A stretch of DNA of 64,000 bases, from NCBI GenBank assembly GCA_051715425.1, contig JBPXJS010000041.1:336360-400359 (forward strand), read 5' to 3'. Below are positions 1 to 63,232 of this stretch, piece by piece. Both the position numbers and the translations under genes were made by a program. The notes beneath the pieces were generated by a model. The model worked only from the letters and a program-made list of their open reading frames with translations. It made no database searches and had not been told where the DNA came from. The DNA comes from Bacteroidota bacterium. GTDB lineage: Bacteria > Bacteroidota > Bacteroidia > UKL13-3. Each line of letters starts with the position of its first letter. Positions within the stretch are counted from its first letter, which is position 1.

Positions 1-690
1 ATACTTGCCGGTATGAAGTATGCCACCGGAGATTGCAATGTGGTGATCACAGCAGACCTTCAGGATCCTCCGGAGCTTATGGTAAAAATGTATGAACATT
101 GGGTGCGGGGAATAAAACTTGTTATTGCTAACCGCACAGACCGGGAAGATCCTTTTTTTTCAAAATTATTTGCACTCCAATATCAGAAACTCATCAAGAA
201 ATATGCCCTTAAAAACCTGCCTGAAGGGGGATTTGATTATTGTCTTTTCGATAAACAACTGCGTACCCAGGTTGTGGAAATGAATGAAACCAATACCAAT
301 TCTCTCTACCTTCTCCTGTGGCTCAAATACGATTATGTTTCCATACCGTATACCAGAAAAAAAAGAAGTATCGGAAAATCTTCGTGGACTTTTCAAAAAA
401 AGCTCAAACTCTTTATCGATTCTTTTGTTTCCTTTTCTTACGCCCCTTTAAGATTAATAACTATTATTGGCCTGCTGCTTGGTCTGCTTTCATTTATATA
501 TGCCCTGTATGTTATTTTTGCCAGACTAAGCGGCCTCATTGAAGTTCAGGGATGGACCACCATGATGGTGGTCTTCCTTCTTGTTTCTTCTTTTCAAATG
601 ATGGCATTGGGTATTATGGGAGAATATCTTTGGCGAAATCTGGAATCATCCAGAAAAAGACAGGCTTTTATTGTTGATGAAGTGATATGA
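1..690 (+). CDS. Family 2 glycosyltransferase, C-terminal part (N-terminus lies upstream of the window). Dolichyl-phosphate / undecaprenyl-phosphate sugar transferase-like with C-terminal transmembrane helices.
   Basis: The in-frame ORF runs from base 1. A GT2 DxD-type motif ITADLQDPPE appears near the window start. The tail is hydrophobic (LLLGLLSFIYALYVIFA, MMVVFLLVSSF), as in ArnC/DPM1-type GT2 enzymes. Confidence 0.65.
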   Translation: MLAGMKYATGDCNVVITADLQDPPELMVKMYEHWVRGIKLVIANRTDREDPFFSKLFALQYQKLIKKYALKNLPEGGFDYCLFDKQLRTQVVEMNETNTNSLYLLLWLKYDYVSIPYTRKKRSIGKSSWTFQKKLKLFIDSFVSFSYAPLRLITIIGLLLGLLSFIYALYVIFARLSGLIEVQGWTTMMVVFLLVSSFQMMALGIMGEYLWRNLESSRKRQAFIVDEVI

Positions 691-1193
691 AGAGTGAGCA
701 AAAATGGTATGTTCTTTATACCAATCCAAGAGCCGAAAAAAAAGTTGCTCAGGAACTTATTAAACACCAATATGAGTACTATCTCCCTTTGTTAAAAACA
801 TTAAAACATTGGAGCGACCGGAAAAAATGGGTAGAAGAACCCCTGTTTAAGTCTTACATTTTTGTAAAAACAAACCTGGAATTACACTATTACCACCTGC
901 TCAATATGTATGGTGTAGTAAAATTTATCAGAATTGGCAGTGAAATAGCCACTATCCGTGAAGAACAACTATTGGATATTAAACTGGGCCTGGAACAAAC
1001 AACCGATATTGAGTTAAGTTCAGATAAAATAGTAAATGGTTCAAATGTTGAAATTATTGCCGGCCCTCTTAAAGGCAAAACCGGATTGGTACTGGAAAGA
1101 CGCGGGAATAAATATTTTTCCATTGAAATTGAACAATTAGGCACCTTTATGCTCATTGCAATACCATCTAACTACTTAAAAATCAATGAGTAG
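687..1193 (+). CDS. UpxY-family (NusG-paralog) transcription antiterminator.
   Basis: 168 aa. NGN-like N-terminus (WYVLYTNPRAEKKV) and a C-terminal KOW-like segment (VEIIAGPLKGKTGLV). Typical first gene of Bacteroidota polysaccharide loci. The ATGA start overlaps the upstream stop. Confidence 0.8.
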   Translation: MKSEQKWYVLYTNPRAEKKVAQELIKHQYEYYLPLLKTLKHWSDRKKWVEEPLFKSYIFVKTNLELHYYHLLNMYGVVKFIRIGSEIATIREEQLLDIKLGLEQTTDIELSSDKIVNGSNVEIIAGPLKGKTGLVLERRGNKYFSIEIEQLGTFMLIAIPSNYLKINE

Positions 1194-9732: not shown

Positions 9733-10428
9733 GTGAATATACTCGCCATTATACCAGCACGCGAAGGTTCCAAAAGAGTACCTAAAAAAAATTTCCGCCC
9801 TTTTGCAGAAAGTACCCTTACAGATATCGCTATTAAACAAGCCTTACAAAGCAAACTTATAAAAACAATTGCAGTAAGCTCAGATAGTAAGGAAGTGCTT
9901 GGTATAGCAAAGAAATATGAGCGAATAATTCCGATGGAGCGTCCGGTTGAATTATCAGATGATCATTCTCCCGCTATTGATTATGTGAGGCATACCTTAG
10001 CGGTACTGGAACAAAACCAGCAATTTGATATGGTTGTGATTCTGCAACCCAGTTCTCCGCTGCGAACAGCCGCTGATATTGATGCTACTATAGATATGCT
10101 GCTAAACCACAAGCATGCTGACTCAGCAGTTAGTGTAGTAAAGGTAAGCCACATGGTGCATCCGGTGAAATTAAAAACGATAAAAGACAATGAGCTCCTT
10201 CCTTTTATTGAAGATGAAAAAGGGCGATTTGCTTCCCAGGATTTACCTGATATTTATGTAAGGAACTGCGCTGTTTATGCAACCTGGCGAAAAGACCTTG
10301 AGACAAGACCTGATGTGATAGGAAAAAAAAGTATTGCCTACGTGATGCCTCCTGAAACATCGGTTGATATAAATGATATGATAGATTTTGAGTTTGCAGA
10401 ATACCTGTATAAAAAACAAATTTCTTGA
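9733..10428 (+). CDS. CMP-nonulosonic acid synthetase (acylneuraminate cytidylyltransferase family; NeuA/LegF/PseF-like).
   Basis: ILAIIPAREGSKRVPKKN and ILQPSSPLR motifs of CTP_transf_3. 231 aa. Confidence 0.8.
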   Translation: MNILAIIPAREGSKRVPKKNFRPFAESTLTDIAIKQALQSKLIKTIAVSSDSKEVLGIAKKYERIIPMERPVELSDDHSPAIDYVRHTLAVLEQNQQFDMVVILQPSSPLRTAADIDATIDMLLNHKHADSAVSVVKVSHMVHPVKLKTIKDNELLPFIEDEKGRFASQDLPDIYVRNCAVYATWRKDLETRPDVIGKKSIAYVMPPETSVDINDMIDFEFAEYLYKKQIS

Positions 10429-11870
10429 GCGTTTTAAAATCTTTAGGTAAGGATACTTTTAACTACGGTATTGGTAAAATAATGCCTCAGGTTATTGGAT
10501 TCCTTCTAATACCCGTTTATACCAGATTTCTTAATCCGTCTGATTATGGGATAGTTGAGATGACTGGTGTATTCAGTGCATTTGTAATGATATTTATGCG
10601 AATGGCACTACCCGGTTCAATTACCAGATTCTACTATAATTACAAAGAAGGTAAAGACCTCAAGGATTATGTTACATCCGTATTTTGGTTAATGAAAATA
10701 CTTGGCCTCACAGTAGCAGTTATCACCGGTATTATTGTCTATTTTTTTGCCGGCACACTTATACCGGGATTGCCATTCTGGCCATTTGTACTTATTGCTT
10801 TGGCAACTGCCTTTTTAACAACCAACTCAGAAATTCAGAAAAGACTACTGCAGGCCAGAAGGCAATCTGCCTATTCTGCCAAACTAAATATTGCTACTGC
10901 CGCATTGGGAATATTACTGGTATTGTTATTTGTTCCGGTATTAAAAATGGGAGCCCTCGGTTTTATTTTAGCAGGTTTGATTGCGGCAATTGTATTTTTT
11001 ATTCAGGCTCATTATTATCTCCGTTTCGATTTGCAGGGTTCATTTAAGCCTGCATTGTTAAAGCATTCCGTTAAATATGCCATTCATATTCTTCCTTCTC
11101 ATCTGATTACGCCTTTTTGTGCATTATTCTCCCGCTCACTTCTTTCTTCCGGTTACTCGCTGGAAGCCGTTGGTGTTTTTGCTATTGCCAACCGCTTTAT
11201 GAGTCCTCTCAATATTGTTTCAGGAGCCTTTAGCAATTCATATGTACCGGTTTATTTTGAAACCAGAGAAAGTAATAGTGAAGAAAATTTGCAGAAACTA
11301 ATTGCTGCAACCCAACGAATATGGGTTCTGGCTAACATGATGTTTCTGGCTATGGCAGTTGCCGGTCCTTTATTTATTGTATTGTTAACACCCGATAAAT
11401 ACCACAGCGGTGCCAACCTTATTCCTGTCTTAAGTTTAACCTTTCTTATCGGGGTTTTCTATGATATGTATACACAGGAACTTTATTACAGCAAACAAAC
11501 TCAGTGGGTTAGTATTATTGCCGTTATGCGATTCATTGCCAATATCAGTGTATTGTTGTTAACGGTAAATTCTTTGGGCATTTTTGCTATTCCGGTGAGC
11601 TTACTTGCAGAATCAATAGTTATCACTACAACTGCTTACTTTATATCAAGAAAACAATTCAGGCTAAAAAAAGATAATTCCTTCCTTACCGTGATAACTG
11701 CTGCCAGCATATCACTCGCATCCATACAAACAATTATGCTTTATTACTCCTTTCCCCTGCATATTCTCATACTGAGCGGGATTGTATTAATCATCATGTT
11801 TCTCGGATTTCTGCATTATAAAAAGTATTTTAACTTTAATACCCTACTAACCCGAATAAGAAAATCATAA
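10425..11870 (+). CDS. wzx: Wzx-type oligosaccharide flippase (polysaccharide biosynthesis protein, MOP superfamily).
   Basis: 481 aa with about 12-14 predicted TM helices. The N-terminus NYGIGKIMPQVIGFLLIPVYTRFL is typical of Wzx. Confidence 0.8.
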   Translation: MSVLKSLGKDTFNYGIGKIMPQVIGFLLIPVYTRFLNPSDYGIVEMTGVFSAFVMIFMRMALPGSITRFYYNYKEGKDLKDYVTSVFWLMKILGLTVAVITGIIVYFFAGTLIPGLPFWPFVLIALATAFLTTNSEIQKRLLQARRQSAYSAKLNIATAALGILLVLLFVPVLKMGALGFILAGLIAAIVFFIQAHYYLRFDLQGSFKPALLKHSVKYAIHILPSHLITPFCALFSRSLLSSGYSLEAVGVFAIANRFMSPLNIVSGAFSNSYVPVYFETRESNSEENLQKLIAATQRIWVLANMMFLAMAVAGPLFIVLLTPDKYHSGANLIPVLSLTFLIGVFYDMYTQELYYSKQTQWVSIIAVMRFIANISVLLLTVNSLGIFAIPVSLLAESIVITTTAYFISRKQFRLKKDNSFLTVITAASISLASIQTIMLYYSFPLHILILSGIVLIIMFLGFLHYKKYFNFNTLLTRIRKS

Positions 11871-25631: not shown

Positions 25632-25644
25632 TTCAGGAAATACC

Positions 25645-29436: not shown

Positions 29437-29437
29437 T

Positions 29438-30565: not shown

Positions 30566-30567
30566 CT

Positions 30568-32157: not shown

Positions 32158-32161
32158 GAGG

Positions 32162-36741: not shown

Positions 36742-36745
36742 GTTT

Positions 36746-43227: not shown

Positions 43228-44688
43228 ATGAATATCATTATAGAGTCTACGGTACTGGAAAAGTGGCAACATTCATTGCTTTCTCATCTTCATGAGCATT
43301 CCTCTGATGAAATCAGAATATTCTCATTAGGATTAAAAAATAAATCATCAGGCGGATTAATAAACCTTATTACATTCTTTGAAAATCGCATCAGAAAAAT
43401 TAATAACCTGTCATATAAAGCAACTCCACTTCAAAATGTTGAGGTTTTAAGCATAAGTGACTTAAAATCCTCCTTAGCGGGAAATTCTATAATCAATCTG
43501 ACTGAAACAGACATTTGTGCTTCAGGAGTTATTCCAAAGGATATTTCTGTTTCCGAAATATATTACGCAACAGAAAGCAGTCAATTTACGCGTAGTCCTT
43601 ATGTGATATTTACAAATTCAGACACATTATATATTAAAGCAGTAACCAAATTAAATGGGGAAATAATTCATTCTGCTACGACAAGAACCAGCAATAACCA
43701 GTATTTTACGAGCAAATCTCTTAGTGACCTGAAATGGAACTCTCTAGAACTTTTAAAGCTTTTACTTAAAACTAAAGACCAGGGTAAACAGGCAGAATCG
43801 ATAAAAGTCAATTCCTGGAAACCTCTGATGATTTTGTTTCCAGCAATGCAGAAAACTTTGAATTTGTTTATATCAAAATTTTTCACCTCCAAAAACACCA
43901 AATGGACAATTGCATTAAAGAATAAAAATACAAATATCACTAGCACCCTTATTCCTGAAAAAGATTACTTTCTGGCAGATCCTTTCATAGTTGAGGAAGA
44001 TTCACAATTACACCTTTTTGTTGAGCATTTTTCCTATCCATTAAATAAGGGGTTGCTTTCTTACATTAATATTGAAAACAATTCCATATCCGAACCCGTA
44101 TTAATTCTGGAAGAGCCTTTTCACCTCTCCTACCCTCACGTATTTTTTCATGAAGGCTGTTATTACATGATTCCTGAAACCCGTCAAAGCAATTCTGTAA
44201 GGCTATATAAATGTATTGAATTTCCCTTAAAATGGTCTTTTTTGAAAACCATTATTGATCATACTCAACTTTCAGATGTTACACTTTTTAAACACGACAG
44301 TATTTACTGGATGTTTGCCAATACATGCGTAGAAAACACCAATAACAGTATAGAAAAGCTACACCTTTTTTATACAGACGATCCAATTAATAGTGAGTGG
44401 CAATCTCACCCATTAAATCCTATTGTGAGTGATGTGTGTAGTTCCAGACCCGCAGGTAATCTCTTTGTAAAAGAGGGTAAAATTTACCGTCCCTCACAGG
44501 ATTCGGGTAAAACATATGGGTATGCGGTAAACATTAATGAAATAGTTTGCCTTTCTAAAAACAATTACGAAGAAAGACTTATTCGTAAGATAAGTCCTGA
44601 TGATGTTTCGTTAAATGCACTTGCCACGCATACTTATAATCAAACAGCCTCCTATGAGGTATTCGATATCATAACAAAATTAAAATGA
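43228..44688 (+). CDS. Hypothetical protein. The C-terminal half looks like a beta-propeller or GH-like sandwich domain.
   Basis: 486 aa. No confident motif. The C-terminal segment FLADPFIVEED...YYMIPETRQ...IYWMFAN recurs in glycan-locus proteins of unknown function. Confidence 0.3.
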   Translation: MNIIIESTVLEKWQHSLLSHLHEHSSDEIRIFSLGLKNKSSGGLINLITFFENRIRKINNLSYKATPLQNVEVLSISDLKSSLAGNSIINLTETDICASGVIPKDISVSEIYYATESSQFTRSPYVIFTNSDTLYIKAVTKLNGEIIHSATTRTSNNQYFTSKSLSDLKWNSLELLKLLLKTKDQGKQAESIKVNSWKPLMILFPAMQKTLNLFISKFFTSKNTKWTIALKNKNTNITSTLIPEKDYFLADPFIVEEDSQLHLFVEHFSYPLNKGLLSYINIENNSISEPVLILEEPFHLSYPHVFFHEGCYYMIPETRQSNSVRLYKCIEFPLKWSFLKTIIDHTQLSDVTLFKHDSIYWMFANTCVENTNNSIEKLHLFYTDDPINSEWQSHPLNPIVSDVCSSRPAGNLFVKEGKIYRPSQDSGKTYGYAVNINEIVCLSKNNYEERLIRKISPDDVSLNALATHTYNQTASYEVFDIITKLK

Positions 44689-45819: not shown

Positions 45820-47091
45820 ATGAAATCGTTAACGCAACAATTAAAAGTAAAGGACAGGCTATTATCTGCTTACACCATAGCCGTTGTTTTTCCTGTGATT
45901 TATATTGGCACAAACTTTTCGTTGGTAATGTTCATTTTTTTATGGCAGTACATACATAATATCACTAAGGTTTCATTTAGCAGTGTTAGGCTGGAATCCA
46001 AACTGCTTATGGCTTTTGGTGTTGGTGTTGTTATCTCCATTTTTGATATATGGACCCTTGAACAAGGTACAGGTAGGATAACTAAAGCGTTTGCCGTAGT
46101 ACCTAATTACCTCTATTGGGCACTAACTATTGTTTTGTTTGTTACTAACTACAGGCTTATTAATTTCTCAGTTATTTATAAGAGTGTAACAATTTCAATA
46201 GTATGTGTAATTGCCTATTATTATGTACCGTTCTTTAAACCTCTGGAAGCTACGTTTCTTTTCAGGGGACTACCAGATAATATCTTTGCGTTTATATTAA
46301 TTGGTTTTACCCCTATTACACTCTCCTATATTAAAAATAAGTTTGGCATATTTGCCTTTTTCATTTCAGGGATTTCTCTCATGTTGTTTGCCTTTCTTGG
46401 CGGATCAAGATCGGGATCATTGCTTGTTTCCTTAAATTTTGCCATTCTCACCATATTTTACTTAAGAAACAGCCTGCTTATTTATTTCTCGTTTGCCATT
46501 GGTGCTATTCTTTTCCTTTCCTATCTAAGCTTTGAGGATGATATTAAACAAATGGTTAAGGCACTTAACCCGAGAACCTATGACCTTCTTTATGAAGAAA
46601 ACACCCTTGAACTGGATCATTCCTATTTAACGAGAGTAGCTATCCGGGAGAAAGGGCTCTCCTTATTTGAGAAAAGCCCCATCACAGGAGTTGGAATAAA
46701 TAATTTTGGCTCTCTTGAAGGAGAAATATCTTACAACTTCGTTGGAGGTGATATTGTGGCCAGGGATGATGAGCATATCCAACATGCAAGTGCTCACAAC
46801 TCCTACATTTCTATTCTTACTGAAACCGGCTTATTGGGTAGTATTCCATTGGCTATATTTATTCTTTACTCTTTAAGCAGATGTCTCAGAATGGGATTAA
46901 AAGGAGATGAGCAATCCTTTGTGCTTGCTATTGGACTGATAGGTATGCTTATCCATTTTAATTTTATTTCCGCCATTCTGAATATTTATACATGGTTCTA
47001 TTTTGGACTGGTAGCAGCCAACAATCAGCGTTTTAACCAAAAAAATGAAACTAGGAATACATTATCACATACCGCTGCTTCAGGCAGATGA
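45820..47091 (+). CDS. wzy: Wzy-type O-antigen/capsule repeat-unit polymerase (O-antigen ligase family).
   Basis: 423 aa, about 10-12 TM helices. Wzy_C-like motif SAHNSYISILTETGLLG in a periplasmic loop. Confidence 0.7.
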   Translation: MKSLTQQLKVKDRLLSAYTIAVVFPVIYIGTNFSLVMFIFLWQYIHNITKVSFSSVRLESKLLMAFGVGVVISIFDIWTLEQGTGRITKAFAVVPNYLYWALTIVLFVTNYRLINFSVIYKSVTISIVCVIAYYYVPFFKPLEATFLFRGLPDNIFAFILIGFTPITLSYIKNKFGIFAFFISGISLMLFAFLGGSRSGSLLVSLNFAILTIFYLRNSLLIYFSFAIGAILFLSYLSFEDDIKQMVKALNPRTYDLLYEENTLELDHSYLTRVAIREKGLSLFEKSPITGVGINNFGSLEGEISYNFVGGDIVARDDEHIQHASAHNSYISILTETGLLGSIPLAIFILYSLSRCLRMGLKGDEQSFVLAIGLIGMLIHFNFISAILNIYTWFYFGLVAANNQRFNQKNETRNTLSHTAASGR

Positions 47092-48244
47092 AAACCAATA
47101 CTTCACAGTAGGCTTTTTTGGTGTATTTCTGGACAGCCTTGCCAATGAGGTTGATGAACTTGTTTGTTTTCTTCATACTCCACTGCAAGGAGAAAAAGAA
47201 ACAATGGACTATCGTTTAAAAGCCAAAAATATAACATTTGTTGATTTAGGTCCACACGATGCATTATATTACAGACTTTTGCGATCAGTTGCTATAAAAC
47301 GAAAATGTGCACCCCAACTTAAAAATGTTGATGCACTATTAATAAGAACCCCTACCCCATTGGTTCAAACAATGGCCGGTGCTATTGAAAAGAGTAAGGT
47401 AACACTGTTACTGGTTGGTGACTATGAAGAAGGAAGTAAAACACTGGGCTTTGGGACATTGAAAAATTTTGTTCTGAGAAAATGGGGGCAATTTTATAAC
47501 AGACAACTTGAAAAGTTGATTTCCCGGGTAAACGTTCTGGCCAACAGCAATCACCTTCAGCAAAAATTCAGCTTATTTAATCCCCAAATAAGGGTTATTA
47601 CCACAACCACACTTTCAGAACAATCTTTTTATAAAAAAGAAACAACCTGCACAAACCCTGAAATTAAACTTCTTTATACCGGAAGAATTGATACCGGGAA
47701 AGGGATACTTGAAATGGCAGAATCGGTTGCCATATTGCGAAAAAAAGGCTACAATGTTTCACTTTCACTTGCCGGGTGGGATGATGACCGTGGTTTAAAA
47801 TCAACGCGAATGCTTGAGGAATTGGCAGCTAAGCTCGGTATCACCCCATATATCCATTTTCTGGGTAGAAAACAGATTGGAGAAGAGTTGAATGCTGTAT
47901 ACCGTGAGGCTGATATTTATCTGATGTGTTCTCAGGTTATCGAAGGTTTCCCCCGCACTATCTGGGAGGCAATGGCCAACTCTCTTCCTGTTATCGCCAC
48001 AAAAGTAGGTTCCATGCCACATTTTCTTTCTGATAAAGAAACAGCCTTGTTAATAGATCCTATGAAGGTTGACCAGCTGGTTGAAGCAATAGAACAATTG
48101 ATAGTCAATCCGGTCTTAAGAGCAAATTTAATCACCGGAGGATATCAACTTGCTAAACAAAATACATTGGAAAGTCAGGCTAAAAAAATGATTGAAGCAA
48201 TTACAAATCCCATCATCCTAAATGCTGCTAAACATTCTTCATAA
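47045..48244 (+). CDS. GT4-family glycosyltransferase (paralog of 52671-53834).
   Basis: EGFPRTIWEAMANSLPVIATKVGS. The N-terminus MKLGIHYHIP matches the paralog MKLAFYYHIP. Confidence 0.75.
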   Translation: MKLGIHYHIPLLQADENQYFTVGFFGVFLDSLANEVDELVCFLHTPLQGEKETMDYRLKAKNITFVDLGPHDALYYRLLRSVAIKRKCAPQLKNVDALLIRTPTPLVQTMAGAIEKSKVTLLLVGDYEEGSKTLGFGTLKNFVLRKWGQFYNRQLEKLISRVNVLANSNHLQQKFSLFNPQIRVITTTTLSEQSFYKKETTCTNPEIKLLYTGRIDTGKGILEMAESVAILRKKGYNVSLSLAGWDDDRGLKSTRMLEELAAKLGITPYIHFLGRKQIGEELNAVYREADIYLMCSQVIEGFPRTIWEAMANSLPVIATKVGSMPHFLSDKETALLIDPMKVDQLVEAIEQLIVNPVLRANLITGGYQLAKQNTLESQAKKMIEAITNPIILNAAKHSS

Positions 48245-49037
48245 AACAGGTTTTTTTAACCTTTGCCGGTCAGTTTATAAAAATAAAAGAAGCATTTCTA
48301 TTCTTCTGCATGGAACCTATGGGAAAACCTTCCGTGATATTCCTCATAAGTTGCATTTTGGAATGCATACGGATGACCTTGAAAAAATGATTTTATGGTT
48401 AAAGAAGGAGAATATTCCCTTAATATCAACCACTGAATTACTTGCCGGTAAACCAGGTCTCAATATCAGTCTTGATGATGGGTATGCAAATAACTATGAA
48501 TATGGACTTAAGGTTTTTGAAAAAATGGAATCCCCATTTACCATTTTTGTTACTACCAGACATATCATTGAAAATGACCGCTGTGATATTCTTGACTACT
48601 TTACAGAAATAATACAAGAACAAAAAATAGCTGTTTCTGACGAAGCGGGCTATGAACTTTTCTGGGGTTTAACTCCGGATCAGGTTAAAAAACTGAGTGT
48701 GCATCCCTTAGCTGAATTGGGCTGCCATACACATAACCACCCGCATCTGAATCTGTGTTCAGAAAATGATATAAATAATGAAATTAGTTTATCTTCTGAC
48801 ATATTGAAAAATTTAACAGGTGAACAGCCAAAAACTTTTTCATATCCCTTTGGAGATTATGACCAGCGGACAATCAACAGTGTTATTAAAAAGGGATTTA
48901 TTGCTGCCTTTGCGGTAAAACCATCACTCAGGAACAATACACTCTTTGAACTGCCAAGAATAGGTATATACAATAACTCACCCGCTTACTTGTCTGCAAA
49001 ACTCAATTTCATATATCACTCTATCAGATGCGCATAA
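48222..49037 (+). CDS. Polysaccharide deacetylase (NodB/CE4 family).
   Basis: ISLDDGYANN (NodB motif 1). GCHTHNHPHL and FSYPFGD motifs. Confidence 0.65.
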   Translation: MLLNILHKTGFFNLCRSVYKNKRSISILLHGTYGKTFRDIPHKLHFGMHTDDLEKMILWLKKENIPLISTTELLAGKPGLNISLDDGYANNYEYGLKVFEKMESPFTIFVTTRHIIENDRCDILDYFTEIIQEQKIAVSDEAGYELFWGLTPDQVKKLSVHPLAELGCHTHNHPHLNLCSENDINNEISLSSDILKNLTGEQPKTFSYPFGDYDQRTINSVIKKGFIAAFAVKPSLRNNTLFELPRIGIYNNSPAYLSAKLNFIYHSIRCA

Positions 49038-49825
49038 CCATCTATACTTCACTTCAAACTGACTGGCTGGCATTGCACCAGATCAACTCCATTAAAAAAG
49101 AGTTTGAAAACGTAACAGTAGTTGCAGTGAACCGCTCTGAAAAAGAGTTTCTACAGGAACGGATTCAGACACAAAAAAAATTAATAAAAAAAAGGGGACT
49201 CATTTGGTTCATTAAGAAAAGAGTCGATAATTATTTTCTGCGCCCATGCTCTTCTGATTGGAACAGGCATCTTGAGGAACAAAAACAGATACAAAAAGCA
49301 CTACTTAAGACAGAGGAAATACCTTATGACCACATTGTTTCATCTGTTAATGGGAAAAACAGCGCACAAACAATATTGGATACAGAACCTGACCTCTTAA
49401 TTCAGGCAGGCGCAGGAATACTGAAATCTAATATTTTTAATATACCAGCCATTTGCACGCTAAATGTGCATGGTGCTATAGCTCCCCGTTTAAGAGGAGG
49501 AAGCTCCATTTTCTGGTCTTACTATTTTGGACGACCAGACTGGCTTGGGGTAACAGTGCATCAAATTGATAAAGGAATTGATACCGGTGCGGTTTATAAA
49601 AGGCAGACATTATCTTATACACCAGGAATTCACCCGGCTGGTAAGTTGGTAGAATCTGCTATTACCGGAACAGATTTGTTATGTTCTGTAATTGGTCAAA
49701 TTCAGAAAAGAGATATTATTGCACAAAAAATAGAAGAAGAAAGTACATACCTTGGGTTTTACAACTCAAAACAATACAATAGCTTAAAAAACAATAACTG
49801 GTACCCGATTAAAACAACTAAATAA
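49028..49825 (+). CDS. Formyltransferase-domain protein (short form).
   Basis: NVHGAIAPRLRGGSSIFWS and VTVHQIDKGIDTGAVY. Confidence 0.65.
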   Translation: MRITIYTSLQTDWLALHQINSIKKEFENVTVVAVNRSEKEFLQERIQTQKKLIKKRGLIWFIKKRVDNYFLRPCSSDWNRHLEEQKQIQKALLKTEEIPYDHIVSSVNGKNSAQTILDTEPDLLIQAGAGILKSNIFNIPAICTLNVHGAIAPRLRGGSSIFWSYYFGRPDWLGVTVHQIDKGIDTGAVYKRQTLSYTPGIHPAGKLVESAITGTDLLCSVIGQIQKRDIIAQKIEEESTYLGFYNSKQYNSLKNNNWYPIKTTK

Positions 49826-51636
49826 TGTCAATCATCTTAGGAATTAACTTTAGTCACGACTGTTCCGTATCCCTGCTGAAAAACGGAAAAGTTCTGGCAT
49901 CCATTGAGGAAGAAAAAACTAGTCGTATCAAACAGGATTTCGGCTGGCCCAAAACAGCAGTAGAAAGATTGCTTAAAGAGCATCATATTAAACCAGAAGA
50001 GGTAAACACCATTGCGTTTGGCAGTAAGTTCTTTTTAAGCATCAGCAAGAACGAAGTAAAATACCGTTTTAATAAAACGCAGTTAAACAGAAATGGCGAA
50101 ATATTAAACCGCATTACTTCTTTTCTGGGTTTTACCGATTCAAATTTTACTGATAAAAATACAGACACATTTGAAGAGGAGTTGAAAAAAGAAGGATTTA
50201 TTCATGCGAAAGTTCAATTTTTTAACCATCACCTTGCTCATGCTGCAAGTGCGTGGTATGCCGCTCCATTTGAGTGCGATCTCGTATTTACTGCAGATGG
50301 TCATGGCGATGGGGAATCAATCACATTTTATGAACCTGATTCCGTAGAAGGATTAAAACTGCTGCAATCATTTGGTCACGAAGTTTCTGTAGGTCAATTC
50401 TACAGCGGAATTACCAAACTGCTTGGTTTCAGACCCACAAGGCATGAAGGAAAGATTACAGGATTAGCCGCTTATGGTAAGCCCGGTGAATTACTGGAAA
50501 AGTTCAGGGGAGCATTTCATTTCGAAAATGGAATACTCACCCGGTTTCCTTTTAATGAATCTGAAACATTGTGGAAACAATATAATCTTGATAGTAACCT
50601 TGATCTGAAAACGAAAGTTAACTTTCAGTCTGAATCAGCTGTTGGTCAGCAATACGCTAAAAATGCATGGATACTTGATGCATGGCTGAAAGAAGTAACA
50701 GCAGGATACAGCAAAGAAGATATAGCATATGCCTGTCAGAAAGTAACAGAAGAAGTAATGGTGCAATTGATGGATTATGCCATTCACAAATTTAAAGGTG
50801 GCAAAAAAATCAAACTTGGTCTTGCAGGCGGGGTATTTGCTAATGTAAGGGTCAATCAGCTCCTGTTCGAACACCCTTTGGTAGAAAATGTTTTTGTTCA
50901 ACCCGCAATGGGAGATTCGGGTTTATCTATTGGGGCTGTTTATCTGGCCGATATTGAGGATCATAAAAATAAGCTTACAAACCAATATCGTTTTACTCAT
51001 ACTTATCTTGGACCAGACTATACCAATGATCTGGAAACCTTTTTAAACAACATTGATAAAGATAAATACATTGTAGAAGATATGGGAAATGAAGCACCTA
51101 AAAGGGTTGCCAAATTAATGCAGGATAATACCATAGTAGGCTTTTGGCACGGCAGTATGGAATGGGGCCCCCGTGCCCTTGGAAAACGTTCTATGATCCT
51201 CAATACGTTTGTTAGAAGCGTGAACGACACCCTCAATCAACGATTAAACCGTACTGAATTTATGCCATTTGCTCCTTCAGTTATTGATTATATGGTAAAA
51301 ACATATATGCCTAAATATGAGGAAAAGGATATTGCTGCCGATTACATGACAATAACCTACGATGTTGATCCTAAATATCACGACCAGTTGCAGGCCGTGG
51401 TTCATGTAGACGGAACAGCCCGACCACAAGTGGTAAAAAAAGAAACCAATCCCTATTATTATGCTATAATAGATGAGTTTTATAAACTGACCGGATGCGG
51501 GGCGATTGTAAATACAAGTTTCAATGTTCATGAAGAGCCCATTGTATCATCTCCTGAATCAGCCTTCAGGGCTCTTGTTGATCATCGGATTGATGCGCTT
51601 GTTCTTGACCAATTTCTCATCGTACATAAAAAATGA
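49825..51636 (+). CDS. NodU/CmcH-family carbamoyltransferase (Kae1/HypF-like fold), O-carbamoyltransferase.
   Basis: 603 aa. MSIILGINFSHDCSVSLL N-terminus. NHHLAHAASAWY (H-x-H-x-H metal site). C-terminal GCGAIVNTSFNVHEEPIV is the NodU carbamoyl-AMP domain. Confidence 0.8.
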   Translation: MSIILGINFSHDCSVSLLKNGKVLASIEEEKTSRIKQDFGWPKTAVERLLKEHHIKPEEVNTIAFGSKFFLSISKNEVKYRFNKTQLNRNGEILNRITSFLGFTDSNFTDKNTDTFEEELKKEGFIHAKVQFFNHHLAHAASAWYAAPFECDLVFTADGHGDGESITFYEPDSVEGLKLLQSFGHEVSVGQFYSGITKLLGFRPTRHEGKITGLAAYGKPGELLEKFRGAFHFENGILTRFPFNESETLWKQYNLDSNLDLKTKVNFQSESAVGQQYAKNAWILDAWLKEVTAGYSKEDIAYACQKVTEEVMVQLMDYAIHKFKGGKKIKLGLAGGVFANVRVNQLLFEHPLVENVFVQPAMGDSGLSIGAVYLADIEDHKNKLTNQYRFTHTYLGPDYTNDLETFLNNIDKDKYIVEDMGNEAPKRVAKLMQDNTIVGFWHGSMEWGPRALGKRSMILNTFVRSVNDTLNQRLNRTEFMPFAPSVIDYMVKTYMPKYEEKDIAADYMTITYDVDPKYHDQLQAVVHVDGTARPQVVKKETNPYYYAIIDEFYKLTGCGAIVNTSFNVHEEPIVSSPESAFRALVDHRIDALVLDQFLIVHKK

Positions 51637-52661
51637 CATCTCAGGTACTGTTTATCGGTACTTTCATTTCTTCAACATCAGGAAGTAAAGGCCCCTCGGA
51701 AAGTATTTCAGAAAAGCTGAGTGAAATGGGGCATTTGGTGGGCACTGTTTCCGGAAAAAAAAGCCCGATAGTGCGCTTTCTGGACACCACTTTTCACATT
51801 ATAAACAGGTCATACAGCATAGCCTTTGTTGATGTTTACAGCAGCAGAACTTTGTACCTCACCTATTTTTACACCTTATTGCTTCGATTAAAAGGGATTC
51901 CTTATATTTCCATTCTCCACGGTGGTGCCCTTGAAGAAAAGTATGATACCATACACAACTTCTTAAACCCTTTATTGCTAAGAAGCAAGCATATTATCAC
52001 ACCTTCAGTTTTCCTTCAATCTTTTTTTACAAAAAAGGGCTTTGAAGTGCAACATTTACCAAATCCGCTAAATCAAGATTTGTTTCCTTATAAAGAACGA
52101 TCCGGTATTCCTTCAATGAATGTGAAGCTGCTTTGGGTTAGGGCATTTAGTGAAATTTACCAGCCAGAACTTGCTATTTATACTTTGCTTCATTTGCGAC
52201 AGCGGGGGTACAAGGCAAGCCTCACGATGGTTGGGCCCGATAAAGGCAAATTAAAAGAATGCCAGTTTCTGGCAGAAAAAAACCAGCTTTTACCTTTTAT
52301 TTCTTTTACCGGCCCGGTGGATAATTCCAAACTTTATACATATTACCATACACACGATATCCTACTTAACACAACAAAGTATGAAAGTTTCGGAATGGCT
52401 GTGGCAGAAGCCGCCTCTTGTGGATTACCAGTTGTAAGTAATGCTGTTGGAGAGATTAAAGCTGCATGGAAACATGAGCATGACATTATTCTGGCTAATG
52501 AAAACGATTTCGCTGATAAAGTTTCGTTATTGATTGAAAACAGCAAGCTATATACTAAAATCTCTCAGGAAGCTTACCATCATGCAAAGCTATTCTACCG
52601 GGATAATATAATACCCCAATGGTTGAAGCTTATTCATACCATAAGCAAAAAAACTGCTTAG
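51633..52661 (+). CDS. GT4-family glycosyltransferase.
   Basis: ESFGMAVAEAASCGLPVVSNAVGE (E-x7-E). Confidence 0.7.
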   Translation: MTSQVLFIGTFISSTSGSKGPSESISEKLSEMGHLVGTVSGKKSPIVRFLDTTFHIINRSYSIAFVDVYSSRTLYLTYFYTLLLRLKGIPYISILHGGALEEKYDTIHNFLNPLLLRSKHIITPSVFLQSFFTKKGFEVQHLPNPLNQDLFPYKERSGIPSMNVKLLWVRAFSEIYQPELAIYTLLHLRQRGYKASLTMVGPDKGKLKECQFLAEKNQLLPFISFTGPVDNSKLYTYYHTHDILLNTTKYESFGMAVAEAASCGLPVVSNAVGEIKAAWKHEHDIILANENDFADKVSLLIENSKLYTKISQEAYHHAKLFYRDNIIPQWLKLIHTISKKTA

Positions 52662-52670: not shown

Positions 52671-53834
52671 TTGAAGTTAGCCTTTTACTACCACATACCA
52701 GCATCACTTAAACCGGATGGAATATATTTCCCATCCTATTTCGGTGTATTTATTGATGCATTGGCAAATGAATGCAGCGGTTTGGTTCTACTGGTTCATG
52801 AGGCTACTCCCTTTGAAAGTGGATCAAATGACTACAGGCTAAAATCAACTCATATTACCCTGATTAATCTGGGCATAACAACACCAGCCTGGCACCGTGC
52901 TTTGTTTCACAGGAATATCATGAAAAAGGCTAAGCAAACATTAAGCACTTGCGATTCCATGATAGTAAGATGCCCTTGCGCATTGGCTCCGTTTATGCAT
53001 CATTATATGCCTGCGGAAAAAATCTGGTTTATGGCCGTAGGTGATTACCGGGAAGCAGCTAAACACTGGAAAACGCCAACTTTAAGGGATAATGCCATTA
53101 AAGTTTATCTCCTCATTAATGATTACCTGTTTAGAAAAAGGCTGCCATACAGTAACCTGCTTGTTAACTCAAAGCTATTGTTTGACAAGTACAGCAAACT
53201 TGCAAAAAAAATTGACCAGATAAGCACCACAACCCTTTCCTCTTCTGATTTCTATGATAGAACAGATACCTGCACCCGACATGAAACAACATTGTTGTAT
53301 ACCGGCAGAATTGACCGGGCAAAAGGGCTGTTTGAACTGGTAGAGGCTGTTTCTATACTTAGAAATGATGGGATGCCGGTAAGACTGAATATTGCCGGCT
53401 GGGAATTGAAAGAGGGAAATGAAACCGAGAAGGAACTCAGATTATTTGCTTCAACATGCGGTGTAGCTAACCATATCCATTTTCTTGGTAAACTAAGTTC
53501 CGGAACCGAACTTAATCAGGCATACCGTGGGGCAGATATTTATGTTATCCCCTCCTATCACGAAGGATTTCCAAGAACCATCTGGGAAGCGTTTGCCAAT
53601 AGTTTACCCGTTATCACCACTTCTGTTGGAGGTATTCCTGATGTACTCACTCATCTTAAACATGCTTACCTTATTCCCCCGCGTGATACCCGGGCAATAG
53701 TAACTGCAGTTAAATATGTTACCGGCAATCAAGCGTGTCGTAAACTTTTAATAAAAGAAGGAAAATTACTTGCAGCACAAAATACCCTTGAGATTCAAAC
53801 CAACAAACTGGTTCAATGTATTTCAAACCCTTAG
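52671..53834 (+). CDS. GT4-family glycosyltransferase (paralog of 47045-48244).
   Basis: EGFPRTIWEAFANSLPVITTSVGG. Confidence 0.75.
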   Translation: MKLAFYYHIPASLKPDGIYFPSYFGVFIDALANECSGLVLLVHEATPFESGSNDYRLKSTHITLINLGITTPAWHRALFHRNIMKKAKQTLSTCDSMIVRCPCALAPFMHHYMPAEKIWFMAVGDYREAAKHWKTPTLRDNAIKVYLLINDYLFRKRLPYSNLLVNSKLLFDKYSKLAKKIDQISTTTLSSSDFYDRTDTCTRHETTLLYTGRIDRAKGLFELVEAVSILRNDGMPVRLNIAGWELKEGNETEKELRLFASTCGVANHIHFLGKLSSGTELNQAYRGADIYVIPSYHEGFPRTIWEAFANSLPVITTSVGGIPDVLTHLKHAYLIPPRDTRAIVTAVKYVTGNQACRKLLIKEGKLLAAQNTLEIQTNKLVQCISNP

Positions 53835-55024: not shown

Positions 55025-56425
55025 ATGGCCTTAACAGATATTATATATAAATACCTTCCTGTTAGTCTTCAGAATTATGCCATTTCCCTGTATGGCTACA
55101 AGTGGCAGAAAAGACGTTTTGGAGGTATATTCGAAAAGGAACTGACAGGCTTTAAAACGCGGGAAAAATACACCCCTGAGCAATGGGAAGCGTATCAGAA
55201 TACAGAACTCAGAAAAATATTGACCCACGCTTTTTCCCATGTACCATTTTACAGGAAAAAATTCACCGATTCGGGCTTTACCCTGCATGACCTTGTAAAC
55301 TTTACCTTATCAGACTTAAGTCATTTGCCCTATCTGGAGAAAGATGAGTTAAGAACATTTGGAACCACAGATCTGATTGCATCAACAAAGGAACCCGGAG
55401 GAGACTTTTTTGCCAGCAGCGGAAGTACCGGAACGCCCACACAAATTCTTATTTCTCCACGGATGCATCAGGCATGGAGCGCGGGATTTGAAGCACGCAT
55501 CAGGCACTGGGCAGGAGTAAACAGGAAAACCCCTCGCGGAACTATTGGTGGCAGAAGAATTATAAAAGACGGAGACGCAAAAGGGCCATTCTACAGATAT
55601 AATCTGGTTGAAAAGCAGGTCTATTTTTCAGCATACCATATTTCCCCAAAAACAGTAGCCAACTATGTAGACGGTATGTTTAAACATCGGATCGAATACA
55701 TGACAGGTTATGCCATGAGCAACTATTTTCTTGCACGTTTTATTGAAGAGGCAGGAATCAAAGCTCCACAACTCAAGGCCGTTATTACCTCGAGTGAAAA
55801 ATTAACTCCCGAAATGAGGGAAACTTTCCGAAGGGTGTATGGCTGCCCTACCTTTGACTCCTATAGCGGTGTTGAAGACTGCGGCATGATAACCGAATGT
55901 GAATCCGGAAGTTTGCATATAAGTCCGGATCTGGGAATAATAGAAATTCTAAATGAACAGGGAAAACCTGTAAATCCTGGTGAAGAAGGTGAAGCAGTTT
56001 GCACAGGTACACTTAATTATGACCAACCTTTAATACGCTACAGAATAGGTGATATGCTTCGGCTAAGCAAGAATCAGAATTGCCCATGTGGCAGGCAAAT
56101 GCCGGTAATTGATGAAATAATAGGTAGAATTGAAGATACCGTGGTGGGTAAGGATGGGCGCGAGATGGTGCGGTTTCATGGCATATTTATCAACATTCCT
56201 GAGATTATTGAAGCTCAGTTGATTCAACATACATTAGAGATGTTTGAAATAAAATTGGTAACATCGCAGCAGCTTAACCCGGATCAATTAAGCCTTATCC
56301 AAAGCCGCATGGAAAGCCAGCTGGGTAAGATTAACCTTGAAATTAATGAAGTAGAGAGCATACCCAGAAACCAAAACGGAAAATTTAAAGCCGTTATCTC
56401 TAAAGTAAAAAGAAATACCATATGA
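55025..56425 (+). CDS. Phenylacetate-CoA ligase / CapK-family adenylate-forming enzyme.
   Basis: FASSGSTGTPTQ (adenylation P-loop-like core) and YLEKDELR. 466 aa. Confidence 0.7.
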   Translation: MALTDIIYKYLPVSLQNYAISLYGYKWQKRRFGGIFEKELTGFKTREKYTPEQWEAYQNTELRKILTHAFSHVPFYRKKFTDSGFTLHDLVNFTLSDLSHLPYLEKDELRTFGTTDLIASTKEPGGDFFASSGSTGTPTQILISPRMHQAWSAGFEARIRHWAGVNRKTPRGTIGGRRIIKDGDAKGPFYRYNLVEKQVYFSAYHISPKTVANYVDGMFKHRIEYMTGYAMSNYFLARFIEEAGIKAPQLKAVITSSEKLTPEMRETFRRVYGCPTFDSYSGVEDCGMITECESGSLHISPDLGIIEILNEQGKPVNPGEEGEAVCTGTLNYDQPLIRYRIGDMLRLSKNQNCPCGRQMPVIDEIIGRIEDTVVGKDGREMVRFHGIFINIPEIIEAQLIQHTLEMFEIKLVTSQQLNPDQLSLIQSRMESQLGKINLEINEVESIPRNQNGKFKAVISKVKRNTI

Positions 56426-57630
56426 ATACACTCAAACTAATAAAGAATCACACAGGAAAACTTGTTCCCCTTGCGCTTAGCACATTAAATCCGGCTAATT
56501 TTACGGTGCTTGTAAAAAATGCCTTTAGTCTATTATCAAGCCAGCAATGGGAAAACTACATTCTCAAAAACAACAAAAAACACACAGAACTGGCAAAGAA
56601 GTCACTCAACTGGCTAAAACATTCTCAGGATGTTATTGGATCAGGAGGCGTGGGCTGTTATGAATTTTACAGGTGGACCAAAGGTTATCCTGAAGTAACC
56701 GGATACATTATACCAACCTTTTGGGATGCATACCATTTATTTGGTGACGAAGAATATAAACAAAGAGCCATTAGAATGGCTGATTGGGAATTGGGTTTAC
56801 AAAAACCGGAAGGCGGATGGGAAGGCTTTTATGAAGGTGACGGCCAACCTCCCGTAGTTTTTAATTCCGGTCAGGTGCTGAGGGGACTTATCAGAACATA
56901 CAAAGAAACCAACGAACAAAAATACCTTGATGCGGCCATTAAAGGAGCTGATTGGATAGTTGGAACTCAGGATGCAGACGGTAGCTGGACCAGCACCAAC
57001 TTTAAACAAATGAAACGGGTGTACGATACTTACGTTACTGCACCCATTGCAGAATTGTATCAGATTACCAAAAACGAAAAGTATAAAGAAAGCTGCATCA
57101 GAAACTGCGATTTTGTATTGAAACACCAACATGCCAATGGCTGGTTTGAGCTTTGTGATAATACGTTGCTGAACAATGAAGCTCCTGTTACCCATACCTT
57201 ATCGTATACCACAGATGGATTAATTGAAACCGGACAACGGCTAGGAATTGATAAATATATTCAGGCCGGTAAACTTGCAGCAGAAGCTATGATGCATAAA
57301 GCTGAAATTTTACCGGTAATGCCAGCACGACTTGATAAGGACTGGAAAAAAAGAGCCAATTATGTTTGTAATACAGGTAACGCACAATTAGGTATTATCC
57401 TCATGAGACTGTATGAAATAACAGGAGAAGCCCGCTACATGAACACTGCTCTAAAACTGGCCGATTTCCTTGCCTATATCCAGCAACTGAATAGTGTGGG
57501 AGCACACCGCACCGGAGGAATAACAGGATCTTATCCGATATGGGGAATGTATTGCCCGCTGAAATACCCATCGTGGGCAAGTAAATATTATACCGATCTT
57601 TTATTCTATATCCATAAGCATGCTAAATAA
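56422..57630 (+). CDS. Alpha/alpha-toroid repeat protein with terpenoid-cyclase / prenyltransferase-like QW repeats. Function unknown.
   Basis: Repeats LQKPEGGWEG, TQDADGSWTS and HQHANGWFEL spaced about 45-55 aa apart. Confidence 0.4.
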   Translation: MNTLKLIKNHTGKLVPLALSTLNPANFTVLVKNAFSLLSSQQWENYILKNNKKHTELAKKSLNWLKHSQDVIGSGGVGCYEFYRWTKGYPEVTGYIIPTFWDAYHLFGDEEYKQRAIRMADWELGLQKPEGGWEGFYEGDGQPPVVFNSGQVLRGLIRTYKETNEQKYLDAAIKGADWIVGTQDADGSWTSTNFKQMKRVYDTYVTAPIAELYQITKNEKYKESCIRNCDFVLKHQHANGWFELCDNTLLNNEAPVTHTLSYTTDGLIETGQRLGIDKYIQAGKLAAEAMMHKAEILPVMPARLDKDWKKRANYVCNTGNAQLGIILMRLYEITGEARYMNTALKLADFLAYIQQLNSVGAHRTGGITGSYPIWGMYCPLKYPSWASKYYTDLLFYIHKHAK

Positions 57631-58372
57631 AGACACGCTTTCAGAGCAAATCGCATTTATCTCCATTAATCCTTCGGGTAAATTTGTAAAATCGGCTCAG
57701 CTGGGATTTGACAAGGTTGGTTTGCGGCCTAAGTTTATGATTTATGTAAACCCCGGAGGGAGGATAAAAAAAGAATTTAAAAAATATCGCCTTGGCATAT
57801 TCACTCAGTTTTTACTTCCAAAATTCAAACAACACTTTGGCAATAAACAAAGCTTTTCCAACGAGGTCATAAACATTCCCATTCCGGTTATCCATAAAGT
57901 AAGTTCATTAAACAGTGACGAAACAGTAAAGTTTATTACCGACAACAAGATTAAATACCTGGTGAATTGTGGTGCCGGAATTTTCAGAAAAAAAATCACT
58001 TCCATTCAAGGCATTCAAATCATTAATGCCCATGCCGGGAAACTTCCTCACTACAGAAATATGAATGTGGTGGAATGGGCACTGCTGAATGGAGAACCTG
58101 TTATCGGAACCATTCATCTGATTGATAGCGGAATTGATACCGGACCAATTCTTTATGAAGAAGAATTAAAGATTAGTGGTGCTGATCACCTGATACCTGC
58201 AAGGGAAATGGCTTTTGATCAGGTCATACAACTGGCAGGTAAAACCGTGCTTGCACTTGCCGAAGAAACATTAAACATCAAACCACAGCCTAAAGAGGGT
58301 AAAAAATGGTATACCATGCATCCCTTCTTTAAGGAAAAACTGAACAGAAAACTGGCCTCTGCGGGCAGGTAA
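57620..58372 (+). CDS. Formyltransferase-domain protein (short form).
   Basis: INAHAGKLPHYRNMNVVEWALLNG and IHLIDSGIDTGPILYEE. Confidence 0.65.
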   Translation: MLNKDTLSEQIAFISINPSGKFVKSAQLGFDKVGLRPKFMIYVNPGGRIKKEFKKYRLGIFTQFLLPKFKQHFGNKQSFSNEVINIPIPVIHKVSSLNSDETVKFITDNKIKYLVNCGAGIFRKKITSIQGIQIINAHAGKLPHYRNMNVVEWALLNGEPVIGTIHLIDSGIDTGPILYEEELKISGADHLIPAREMAFDQVIQLAGKTVLALAEETLNIKPQPKEGKKWYTMHPFFKEKLNRKLASAGR

Positions 58373-60264: not shown

Positions 60265-60289
60265 TGCAAAGTGTTTAGTGCAAAGTGCT
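60262..60289. repeat. Tandem 14-bp direct repeat (TAGTGCAAAGTGTT / TAGTGCAAAGTGCT) overlapping the stop codon of the upstream gene.
   Basis: Read directly from the sequence. Confidence 0.6.
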
Positions 60290-60353
60290 CGGTTAGCATG
60301 TAAATAATAAGCTTGAGTTTGTTCGTTCAAAGTTGGCCATTTAACGCATTCGC

Positions 60354-60409
60354 ACATTAACACTTCGACACCTCAACACCTCAACACATTAACACCTCAA
60401 CGCATCTAC
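60354..60409. repeat. Seven tandem 8-bp units ACMTYRAC (ACATTAAC ACTTCGAC ACCTCAAC ACCTCAAC ACATTAAC ACCTCAAC GCATCTAC) in a 184-bp intergenic region.
   Basis: Read directly. The 8-bp period is less than one helical turn. It is not CRISPR-like: no spacers, and the units are too short. Confidence 0.6.
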
Positions 60410-60448
60410 CAACTGGCCGGTGTTTTCAACTAACCAGGAATAAAAATA

Positions 60449-61201: not shown

Positions 61202-61387
61202 CCGGATTTCACCGCACCCCTAACTTTTATTTGCAGCCTTTCCCATTAGCTAAGGGCATCTCTTTTGGCTTTCTTTTAATGACTGTTGTTCTGCAGTCGC
61301 ATCCCCACCATCTTATTTATTTAGCGATTTTCATCTGAAAATCCTTATTTCGCAGGTATTGTTTATACTTAATACTTAAAGATACCT

Positions 61388-62644: not shown

Positions 62645-63232
62645 TTGAAACGCCTTTTTGATATTCTATTCAGCCTCATTGGCATACTACTCCTTTCACC
62701 GGTTTTTCTGTTGTTATGGCTGCTTATTAGAATGGAATCCAAAGGGCCTGCCGTTTTTACCCAAATGCGCGTTGGACTTAACAACAGCAACTTTACCCTT
62801 TATAAGTTCCGCAGCATGTATTCAGATGCCGAAAAAAGGGGACAACTTACGGTAGGCATGCGTGACCCAAGGATTACCAAAGTTGGTTATTACCTGAGAC
62901 GGTTTAAACTCGATGAATTACCCCAATTATTTAATGTACTTAATGGCAGTATGAGTTTTGTAGGGCCCAGGCCCGAAGTAAGGCGCTATGTGGATTATTA
63001 CACGCATGAACAATTAAAAGTGCTTTCCGTAAGGCCGGGAATTACAGATTTTGCATCCCTGAAATATTATAAGGAAAATGAATTACTGGGTAAAGCCAGC
63101 GACCCTGAAAAGGAGTACATTCAGGTAATTATGCCTGAAAAACTGGCTCTTAACCTGGAGTATATTAAGAAAAACTCTTTACTGAAAGATATCGTAATTA
63201 TAGTACAAACCATTATCAAAATAATAACCTGA
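62645..63232 (+). CDS. Small (PglC/WecA-unrelated monotopic) phosphoglycosyl transferase of the bacterial sugar transferase family. It initiates the repeat unit on undecaprenyl phosphate.
   Basis: MKRLFDILFSLIGILLLSP, YKFRSM and DELPQLFNVLNGSMSFVGPRP are PglC-family motifs. 195 aa. Confidence 0.85.
   Translation: MKRLFDILFSLIGILLLSPVFLLLWLLIRMESKGPAVFTQMRVGLNNSNFTLYKFRSMYSDAEKRGQLTVGMRDPRITKVGYYLRRFKLDELPQLFNVLNGSMSFVGPRPEVRRYVDYYTHEQLKVLSVRPGITDFASLKYYKENELLGKASDPEKEYIQVIMPEKLALNLEYIKKNSLLKDIVIIVQTIIKIIT

Follow-up and report, generated by a model that had tools for sequence, protein, structure and literature searches.

A 64,000-nucleotide stretch of Bacteroidota DNA (contig JBPXJS010000041.1, positions 336,360 to 400,359; hereafter, the window, whose own coordinates are used throughout) carries an open reading frame (ORF) at 49825..51636 (+) which, by sequence and predicted fold, is a full-length class III (TobZ/NodU/CmcH-type) carbamoyltransferase. 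The gene lies in what is, judging from gene content, a Wzx/Wzy-dependent surface-polysaccharide cluster of the Bacteroidota UpxY type. Its product is best read as a soluble cytoplasmic enzyme that would depend on ATP and carbamoyl phosphate and would give rise to a carbamoylated capsular or O-antigen-like polysaccharide; a probability of about 0.72 was assigned to this reading. The one unexpected feature, as far as the alignments can tell, is that the whole clade has replaced the K-x-R...R motif of its adenylating domain.

Family assignment and active-site residues

The target ORF starts with ATG and encodes 603 amino acids (aa), being full length by comparison with its homologs (600-606 aa). 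Its G+C content is 0.389, against 0.384 for the window. The Pfam profile Carbam_trans_N (PF02543; 2.8e-45, 155.7 bits against a cutoff of 24), representing the Kae1-like transfer domain, covered residues 4-371 (49834..50937, +), and Carbam_trans_C (PF16861; 5.5e-56, 189.2 bits against a cutoff of 27), representing the YrdC-like, predicted carbamoyl-adenylate-forming domain, covered residues 429-599 (51109..51621, +). This Kae1-like plus YrdC-like arrangement is the two-domain architecture of class III enzymes. An earlier sequence-only reading of the window had described a 603-aa carbamoyltransferase at this position, with the same two domains in the same roles, and the ORF call and the two profile matches, the check which it proposed, bear it out.

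The solved relatives found in the PDB by sequence were NovN (5.5e-56), GdmN, VtdB (7xb6), and TobZ (1.4e-46). At E-values of 1e-45 to 1e-56, and with full-length agreement with homologs of ~600 aa, chance similarity is no concern at the sequence level. An AlphaFold2 model of the target built with 30 homologs had a predicted local distance difference test (pLDDT) score of 86.4 and a predicted template modeling (pTM) score of 0.86. In Foldseek searches, the model matched GdmN (2.6e-35), NovN, and VtdB over both domains, as well as TobZ, with template modeling (TM) scores of 0.78 on the query and 0.82 on TobZ. Kae1/TsaD proteins matched the N-terminal half of the model only. Two narrower assignments were rejected. 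Orthology to NodU was discarded with 113.1 bits for NCBIfam NF041651 (cutoff 1000) and 25% identity to S. americanum NodU; the HypF profile (TIGR00143) gave 24.4 bits against a cutoff of 466, its match was confined to the last subdomain, and the target is not a four-domain protein. A tblastn search of plasmids returned no relative above 32% identity.

Transfer-site residues were mapped to GdmN by alignment, and their codons were checked. In GdmN, H27 is the general base (the H27N variant is inactive), and H133, H137, D156, and D333 are the iron ligands, which are conserved across class III carbamoyltransferases (PMC9633730). The candidate general base of the target, H11 (49855-49857, +), lies in G-I-N-F-S-H-D and aligns with GdmN H27. 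The predicted metal ligands H135 (50227-50229, +), H139 (50239-50241, +), D158 (50296-50298, +), and D364 (50914-50916, +) align with GdmN H133, H137, D156, and D333, respectively. Both the two-His/two-Asp metal site and the N-terminal general-base His of class III (GdmN H27, TobZ H14) are thus present. The metal motif reads H135-H-L-A-H139 (HHxxH, of the Kae1/TobZ H-x3-H type), with D158 and D364; the sequence-only reading had given an 'HxH' site, which is wrong. All five residues are invariant in 124/124 subfamily sequences. In total, 107 of the 603 positions are invariant in these sequences, including every transfer-site residue and most of the adenylation-site residues.

The adenylating domain was compared with TobZ, the numbering of which was taken as the chain index minus 6, calibrated on K443, M473, and S530 falling on the right residue types. 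The S-x-N half-signature and the carbamoyl phosphate/ATP-binding Arg residues of class III (TobZ R418, R498, N528, S530, and N532) are retained in the target as R450, R533, N563, S565, and N567, the last three within NTSFN, and TobZ M473 is retained as M508. The K-x-R half-signature and the Arg following it are not retained: TobZ K443, R445, and R449 align with N475, T477, and, after a one-residue deletion, M480. TobZ, NovN, GdmN, VtdB, and NodU all read K-x-R-E-x-x-R-P-[FV]-A-P, and the corresponding segment of the target (51241-51276) reads R473-L-N475-R476-T-E-F-M480-PFAP.

Among 123 subfamily sequences, R473, R476, T477, and the F-M pair never vary, and position 475 holds N or S. In the wider clade (145 representatives, 33-44% identity), R476 is again invariant, 134 have R or K at position 473, the F-M pair occurs in 143, and position 475 varies freely (N/K/R/G/H/Q/S). 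Over the clade as a whole, R476 is found in 268/268 sequences and R or K at position 473 in 257/268, and the deviation from K-x-R is common to all 268. The NTSFN motif is present in 123/123 subfamily and 145/146 wider-clade sequences, and at least 145 clusters (50% identity) carry the motif x-R-[TS]-E-F-M-P-F-A-P. Since the whole clade has the K-x-R change, it does not reflect decay of the target gene. The likeliest explanation from the alignment is that R473 and R476, which lie one or two residues off, would supply the basic residues in a shifted register. The sequence-only reading had proposed that loss of the catalytic His or Lys residues would speak against its prediction; every His is kept, and Lys443 of TobZ is replaced with Asn475, by which the Lys half of this test was formally triggered.

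Conserved setting and proposed product

The exact target protein is already known from NCBI and Logan run SRR31089860 (P0001). The best 120 protein clusters showed 53-100% identity to the target and ~600 aa, and several of them had been automatically named "carbamoyltransferase" by JGI or NCBI. The subfamily therefore comprises at least 120 clusters at ≥53% identity, which is a lower bound. For the family, an exhaustive search of 50%-identity clusters returned 17,056 at E ≤ 1e-3 and 4,561 at E ≤ 1e-30. The target's own 50% cluster is set apart by a drop in identity from 58% to 44% at the next representative. A scan of species-level genomes revealed relatives at 57-71% identity in Bacteroidota metagenome-assembled genomes (MAGs).

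In total, 14 subfamily loci (designated by L numbers where they need to be told apart) were taken for synteny analysis. The gene lies within a Wzy/glycosyltransferase (GT) family 4 (GT4) assembly block in 12 of the 14 (orthologs of 53-76% identity), usually in the order GT2-Wzy-GT4-carbamoyltransferase-short GT4-CapK-like ligase. In the window, the conserved upstream flank of this cassette consists of a Wzy-type polymerase (45820..47091, +; Pfam Wzy_C) and a GT4 (47045..48244, +; Pfam Glycos_transf_1). The conserved downstream partner of the carbamoyltransferase is a short GT4 of 342 aa (51633..52661, +; Pfam Glycos_transf_1), and a further conserved member is a CapK/PaaK-like adenylate-forming ligase of 466 aa (55025..56425, +), for which all NCBIfam PaaK-like matches were below cutoff. 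The short GT4 ortholog directly follows the carbamoyltransferase in L001, L004, L005, L008, L010, L011, and L017; in L006 and L016 it lies further downstream, by one and two genes, respectively, and in L012 it directly precedes the carbamoyltransferase. The CapK-like ligase shows 56-65% identity in L001 and L004, and CapK_C matches occur at orthologous positions among the loci. The GT4-GNAT-DegT-Bac_transf tail of the window recurs in L010, and two members of the wider clade (44% and 39% identity) directly follow a GT4 gene.

The same cassette was observed, with 59-69% identity to the window genes, at 548-18522 of L004 (CALRQL020000001.1), which belongs to a MAG labelled 'Agrobacterium sp. 719_389'. 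Such a label would be explained by mis-binning or mislabelling of the contig or by horizontal transfer.

The target overlaps both of its neighbours. Upstream, the stop codon of a formyltransferase-fold gene (265 aa; 49028..49825, +; Pfam Formyl_trans_N, 2.6e-11; Asn-x-His...Asp of Fmt/ArnA kept) shares one nucleotide with the target ATG (TAATG). Downstream, the target stop overlaps the start of the short GT4 by 4 nucleotides (ATGA). These overlaps suggest translational coupling of the target. Promoter-like and terminator-like sites between 44 and 60 kb showed no excess over shuffled sequence (35 against 50 expected and 19 against 14.6±3.6, respectively). The formyltransferase-fold gene is preceded by a polysaccharide deacetylase of the NodB/PgaB-type CE4 (271 aa; 48222..49037, +; Pfam Polysacc_deac_1, 1.5e-22; NCBIfam match weak and below cutoff). 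The closest relatives (76% and 74% identity) have no such pair, nor do most of the other loci, and a deacetylase stands directly upstream of a carbamoyltransferase ortholog in L010 only. By this comparison, the pair is an insertion specific to the window and not a conserved partner, and a conserved functional trio of deacetylase, formyltransferase, and carbamoyltransferase was rejected.

In the proposed reaction, the C-terminal YrdC-like domain would convert carbamoyl phosphate and ATP to carbamoyl-AMP. H11 would then deprotonate a sugar hydroxyl for attack on the carbamoyl carbon, yielding an O-carbamoyl sugar and AMP. The most likely acceptor would be a sugar within the repeat unit that the flanking GT4 enzymes are predicted to build on undecaprenyl diphosphate; the nucleotide-sugar precursor is a further possibility. 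The target protein has no hydrophobic segment (maximum KD19 = 1.07), which fits a soluble enzyme. Because of this, and because it would need ATP and carbamoyl phosphate, carbamoylation is expected on the cytoplasmic face, ahead of Wzx flipping and Wzy polymerization. Modification of oxygen is favoured since the general-base His is invariant and the characterized class III relatives are O-specific.

An O-carbamoylated polysaccharide had already been predicted in the sequence-only reading, which placed the gene in the GT-rich assembly half of the locus, between a formyltransferase and GT4 genes. This placement agrees with the Pfam assignments of the neighbours. Family and domain roles also stand, and carbamoylation of the locus product is a reasonable prediction, given the gene overlaps and the 12 of 14 loci; the O-linkage is extrapolated, and the formyltransferase partner is not conserved. 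The finding is, moreover, less unusual than that reading held, the subfamily being common, syntenic, and already automatically annotated.

Several points weigh against the proposed product. The closest characterized enzymes are only 23-31% identical to the target, and O-carbamoylation is extrapolated from relatives at that distance; no characterized member was found for the subfamily or for the wider 'FMPFAP' clade. Where TobZ has K443 and R449, the target has N475 and M480, neither of them Lys or Arg. The link to the locus is not obligatory: two lone subfamily genes lie outside an assembly operon, one 2.4 kb upstream of a separate UpxY-like/KdsA/KpsF locus (L002) and the other among unrelated neighbours (L009). 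Finally, neither a carbamoylated Bacteroidota polysaccharide nor a Bacteroidota glycan carbamoyltransferase turned up in the literature searched, most subscription carbohydrate journals lying outside it.

Transfer to nitrogen is unlikely. It would place the carbamoyl group on the amine of an amino sugar, perhaps one exposed by the CE4 deacetylase at 48222, and yield a ureido sugar; carbamoyltransferases as a group do use amino, hydroxyl, or thiol acceptors (PMC9633730). The Polysacc_deac_1 gene lies two genes upstream of the target in the window and directly upstream in L010, but of the 11 other assembly-block loci, 10 have no deacetylase beside the ortholog. Genes for amino sugars are plentiful in the locus (DegT at 12863 and 61388, class-III aminotransferase at 16668), yet the formyltransferase-fold gene is a more obvious user of a freed amine in the window. 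In addition, the His that would deprotonate a hydroxyl is invariant, and the characterized class III matches TobZ, VtdB, GdmN (C-7 hydroxyl), and NodU act on oxygen, NovN being described only as a carbamoyltransferase. The enzyme might also act outside the locus polysaccharide, for example on a small metabolite, a protein-linked glycan, or the lipid-linked glycan of a different pathway. Its gene would then be placed in the locus incidentally. The two lone genes (L002 and L009) would agree with this; the start and stop overlaps with both neighbours, the retention of the gene between Wzy and GT4 in 12 of 14 loci, and the adjacency to GT4 down to 39% identity make it very improbable.

The altered motif could mean that the same fold performs another adenylating chemistry, with a different donor or activated intermediate, the transferred group not being a simple carbamoyl from carbamoyl phosphate. 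The five characterized enzymes inspected all keep K-x-R-E-x-x-R-P, the K-x-R...R positions of the target read N-R-T...M, and position 475 is variable in the 145 representatives. However, the transfer site shows no change, the Carbam_trans_C profile matches over its full length (5.5e-56), and the conservation of R476 (268/268), of R or K at 473 (257/268), and of NTSFN, GPRALG, R533, and M508 agrees with a basic pair that has shifted register but kept its task, so that a change of chemistry appears quite improbable. A bolder combination, judged rather improbable, is that the FMPFAP clade activates or transfers its group unlike TobZ/NodU and that, in the window, the enzyme cooperates with the inserted deacetylase and formyltransferase, so that one capsule repeat residue would be deacetylated, re-acylated at the amine, and then carbamoylated in a Nod-factor-like manner. 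As for an inactive remnant, the missing counterpart of TobZ K443, a residue mutated by crystallographers (K443A, PDB 3vez), would be in line with it; the ORF is nevertheless full length, 107/603 positions are invariant in 124 sequences, and inactivity is disfavoured because the substitution is clade-wide. A pseudoenzyme is scarcely credible and was rejected on conservation. O-carbamoylation of the locus polysaccharide is thus the preferred reading.

Surrounding polysaccharide locus

In the window, 60 of the 63 ORFs of at least 150 aa are on the + strand. The genes characteristic of a Bacteroidota locus of this kind (UpxY, Wzx, Wzy, GT, and an initiating phosphoglycosyl transferase (PGT)) were all detected. 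A UpxY-family transcription antiterminator stands at the locus head (687..1193, +; NCBIfam NF033644, 139.3 bits against a cutoff of 100), a Wzx-type flippase was found at 10425..11870 (+; Pfam Polysacc_synt), and the small PGT (Pfam Bac_transf) at 62645..63232 (+). Export genes (Wza/Wzc) were not seen within the window. The assembly half includes a GINT1_N-like gene, GT2 (44685), Wzy, six GT4 genes, GNAT (59593), a DegT aminotransferase (61388), and Bac_transf, which the GNAT and DegT genes precede. Further GT4 genes downstream of the target were assigned by Pfam at 52671 and 53904. An asparagine-synthase-type amidotransferase is also encoded in the locus.

The GT4 at 52671-53834 has 387 aa from a TTG start and 291 aa in L007 (6135-7010; Logan assembly, apparently the same organism), and its start is uncertain. 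The 486-aa protein encoded at 43228-44688 matched GINT1_N, the N-terminal domain of eukaryotic glucosamine inositolphosphorylceramide transferase 1 (1.6e-41). The closest related loci also have such a gene immediately before GT2-Wzy (L016, 2062-3552; L017, 694-2316). The ORF at 60449-61201 (250 aa) had no Pfam match. Along the co-directional gene run behind the locus head, the only intergenic gaps above 180 bp are at 36524-36746, 60264-60449, and 61201-61388, and a 171-bp gap follows UpxY (1193-1365); the long gaps may be internal promoters or regulatory sites.

The locus also encodes various other tailoring modules. Three NeuB-type synthases (1916-2938, 14954-15934, and 23325-24383) and two cytidylyltransferases (9733-10428 and 15931-16668) are accompanied by a UDP-GlcNAc 2-epimerase (2928), a PseB-like dehydratase (11875), and a PseC-like aminotransferase (12863). 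With this gene content, a single polymer might contain as many as three distinct nonulosonic acids or derivatives of them. Five formyltransferase-fold ORFs were found (4817-5860, 21662-22291, 25594-26676, 49028-49825, and 57620-58372), two of which have a CE4 deacetylase gene as partner (5857-6786 and 48222-49037); a PIG-L deacetylase gene (24380-25093) lies in the vicinity of another. Judged by these annotations, deacetylate-and-re-acylate tailoring genes are unusually dense in the locus. A conserved trio at 55025-58372 is composed of the CapK/PaaK-like ligase, a 402-aa alpha/alpha-toroid protein with weak Pec_lyase/GH88/C5-epimerase matches, and a 250-aa formyltransferase-fold protein. Its counterparts are located at 12844-16206 in L004 (65%, 69%, and 58% identity), 9512-12868 in L012, and 12311-13809 in L016.

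The region 27976-35109 contains genes for an MBOAT O-acyltransferase (27976), a 375-aa ORF without a Pfam match (29438), a MaoC-dehydratase/SDR fusion (32162), and an FkbH-domain protein (33355; TIGR01686, 280 bits against a cutoff of 147). Its composition suggests a module for O-acylation of the polysaccharide via a glyceryl- or hydroxyacyl-carrier. At 18036-20647, HisH-like and HisF-like proteins are encoded together with an N-acetyl-sugar amidotransferase of the WbuX type (343 bits; cutoff, 203). The WbuX/HisH/HisF set is usually tied to the formation of acetamidino (acetimidoyl) sugars. A second HisH/HisF-like pair was present in the related loci L001, L011, and L017.

Comparison with known carbamoyltransferases

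The sequence-only reading considered carbamoylation to be rare on capsule and O-antigen sugars. As a statement on described structures this holds, in the sense of "rarely described": the searched literature contained no carbamoylated capsule, O-antigen repeat unit, or exopolysaccharide, and only Pseudomonas lipopolysaccharide (LPS) core and Nod factors turned up. It does not hold for genomes, given the at least 120 subfamily clusters and the 4,561 family clusters at E ≤ 1e-30. If the proposed product is correct, a Bacteroidota polysaccharide would bear a carbamoyl group, a substituent which, among surface or secreted glycans, that literature documents only on those two. Since many environmental Bacteroidota loci contain this gene at an equivalent position, a single structural or mutant study would annotate the whole locus family. 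Carbamoylation alters charge-neutral hydrogen bonding and antigenicity and could therefore matter for recognition by phages or antibodies. The practical value is modest, as the gene is already automatically annotated as a carbamoyltransferase and the chemistry is expected.

A surface-glycan precedent is WapO (PA5005), a putative carbamoyltransferase for 7-O-carbamoyl-heptose in the Pseudomonas LPS inner core (PMC8005017, PMC6801904). Carbamoyl 13C signals are given in PMC8005017 as 158.9 and 159.4 ppm. Like the target gene, the WapO gene lies inside a glycan cluster. It differs in acting on the LPS inner core, not on a Wzy-polymerized repeat unit, and in belonging to Pseudomonadota.

The best matches by sequence and fold, GdmN, NovN, and VtdB (5.5e-56 to 1.4e-48; Foldseek 2.6e-35), have the catalytic His and iron ligands in common with the target. 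Unlike it, they keep the K-K-R-E or K-H-R-E motif and have hydrophobic acceptor pockets for polyketides or aminocoumarins, and GdmN and NovN (proteins of ~680 aa) carry an extra C-terminal dimerization domain which is missing in the target. MoeM5 of moenomycin biosynthesis, on which a literature search returned nothing, is a NodU-type enzyme carbamoylating a sugar of a lipid-linked oligosaccharide; it would be the nearest analogy in mechanism to modification of an undecaprenyl-diphosphate-linked repeat unit. TobZ, the nebramycin/tobramycin 6''-O-carbamoyltransferase (PDB 3VEN), resembles the target in being of two domains and monomer-sized without an extra C-terminal domain, the target ending where TobZ ends. 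It also shares the H-x3-H...D...D metal site, and its mutated His is H14 (H14N, PDB 3vex). The two proteins show ~24% identity, their acceptor-side regions (residues ~66-130 and 231-297) do not align, and the TobZ substrate is an aminoglycoside, unlike the polysaccharide intermediate predicted for the target.

Carbamoylation of Nod factors proceeds via NodU/NolO (PMC6275314). These class III enzymes, like the target in its proposed role, modify a sugar of an oligosaccharide that is built in the cytoplasm, and their gene stands among glycan-assembly genes (nodC-nodS-nodU, L013). NodU is 25% identical to the target and keeps K-F-R-E-H-F-R-P, and its substrate is a lipochitooligosaccharide signal, not a repeat-unit polymer.

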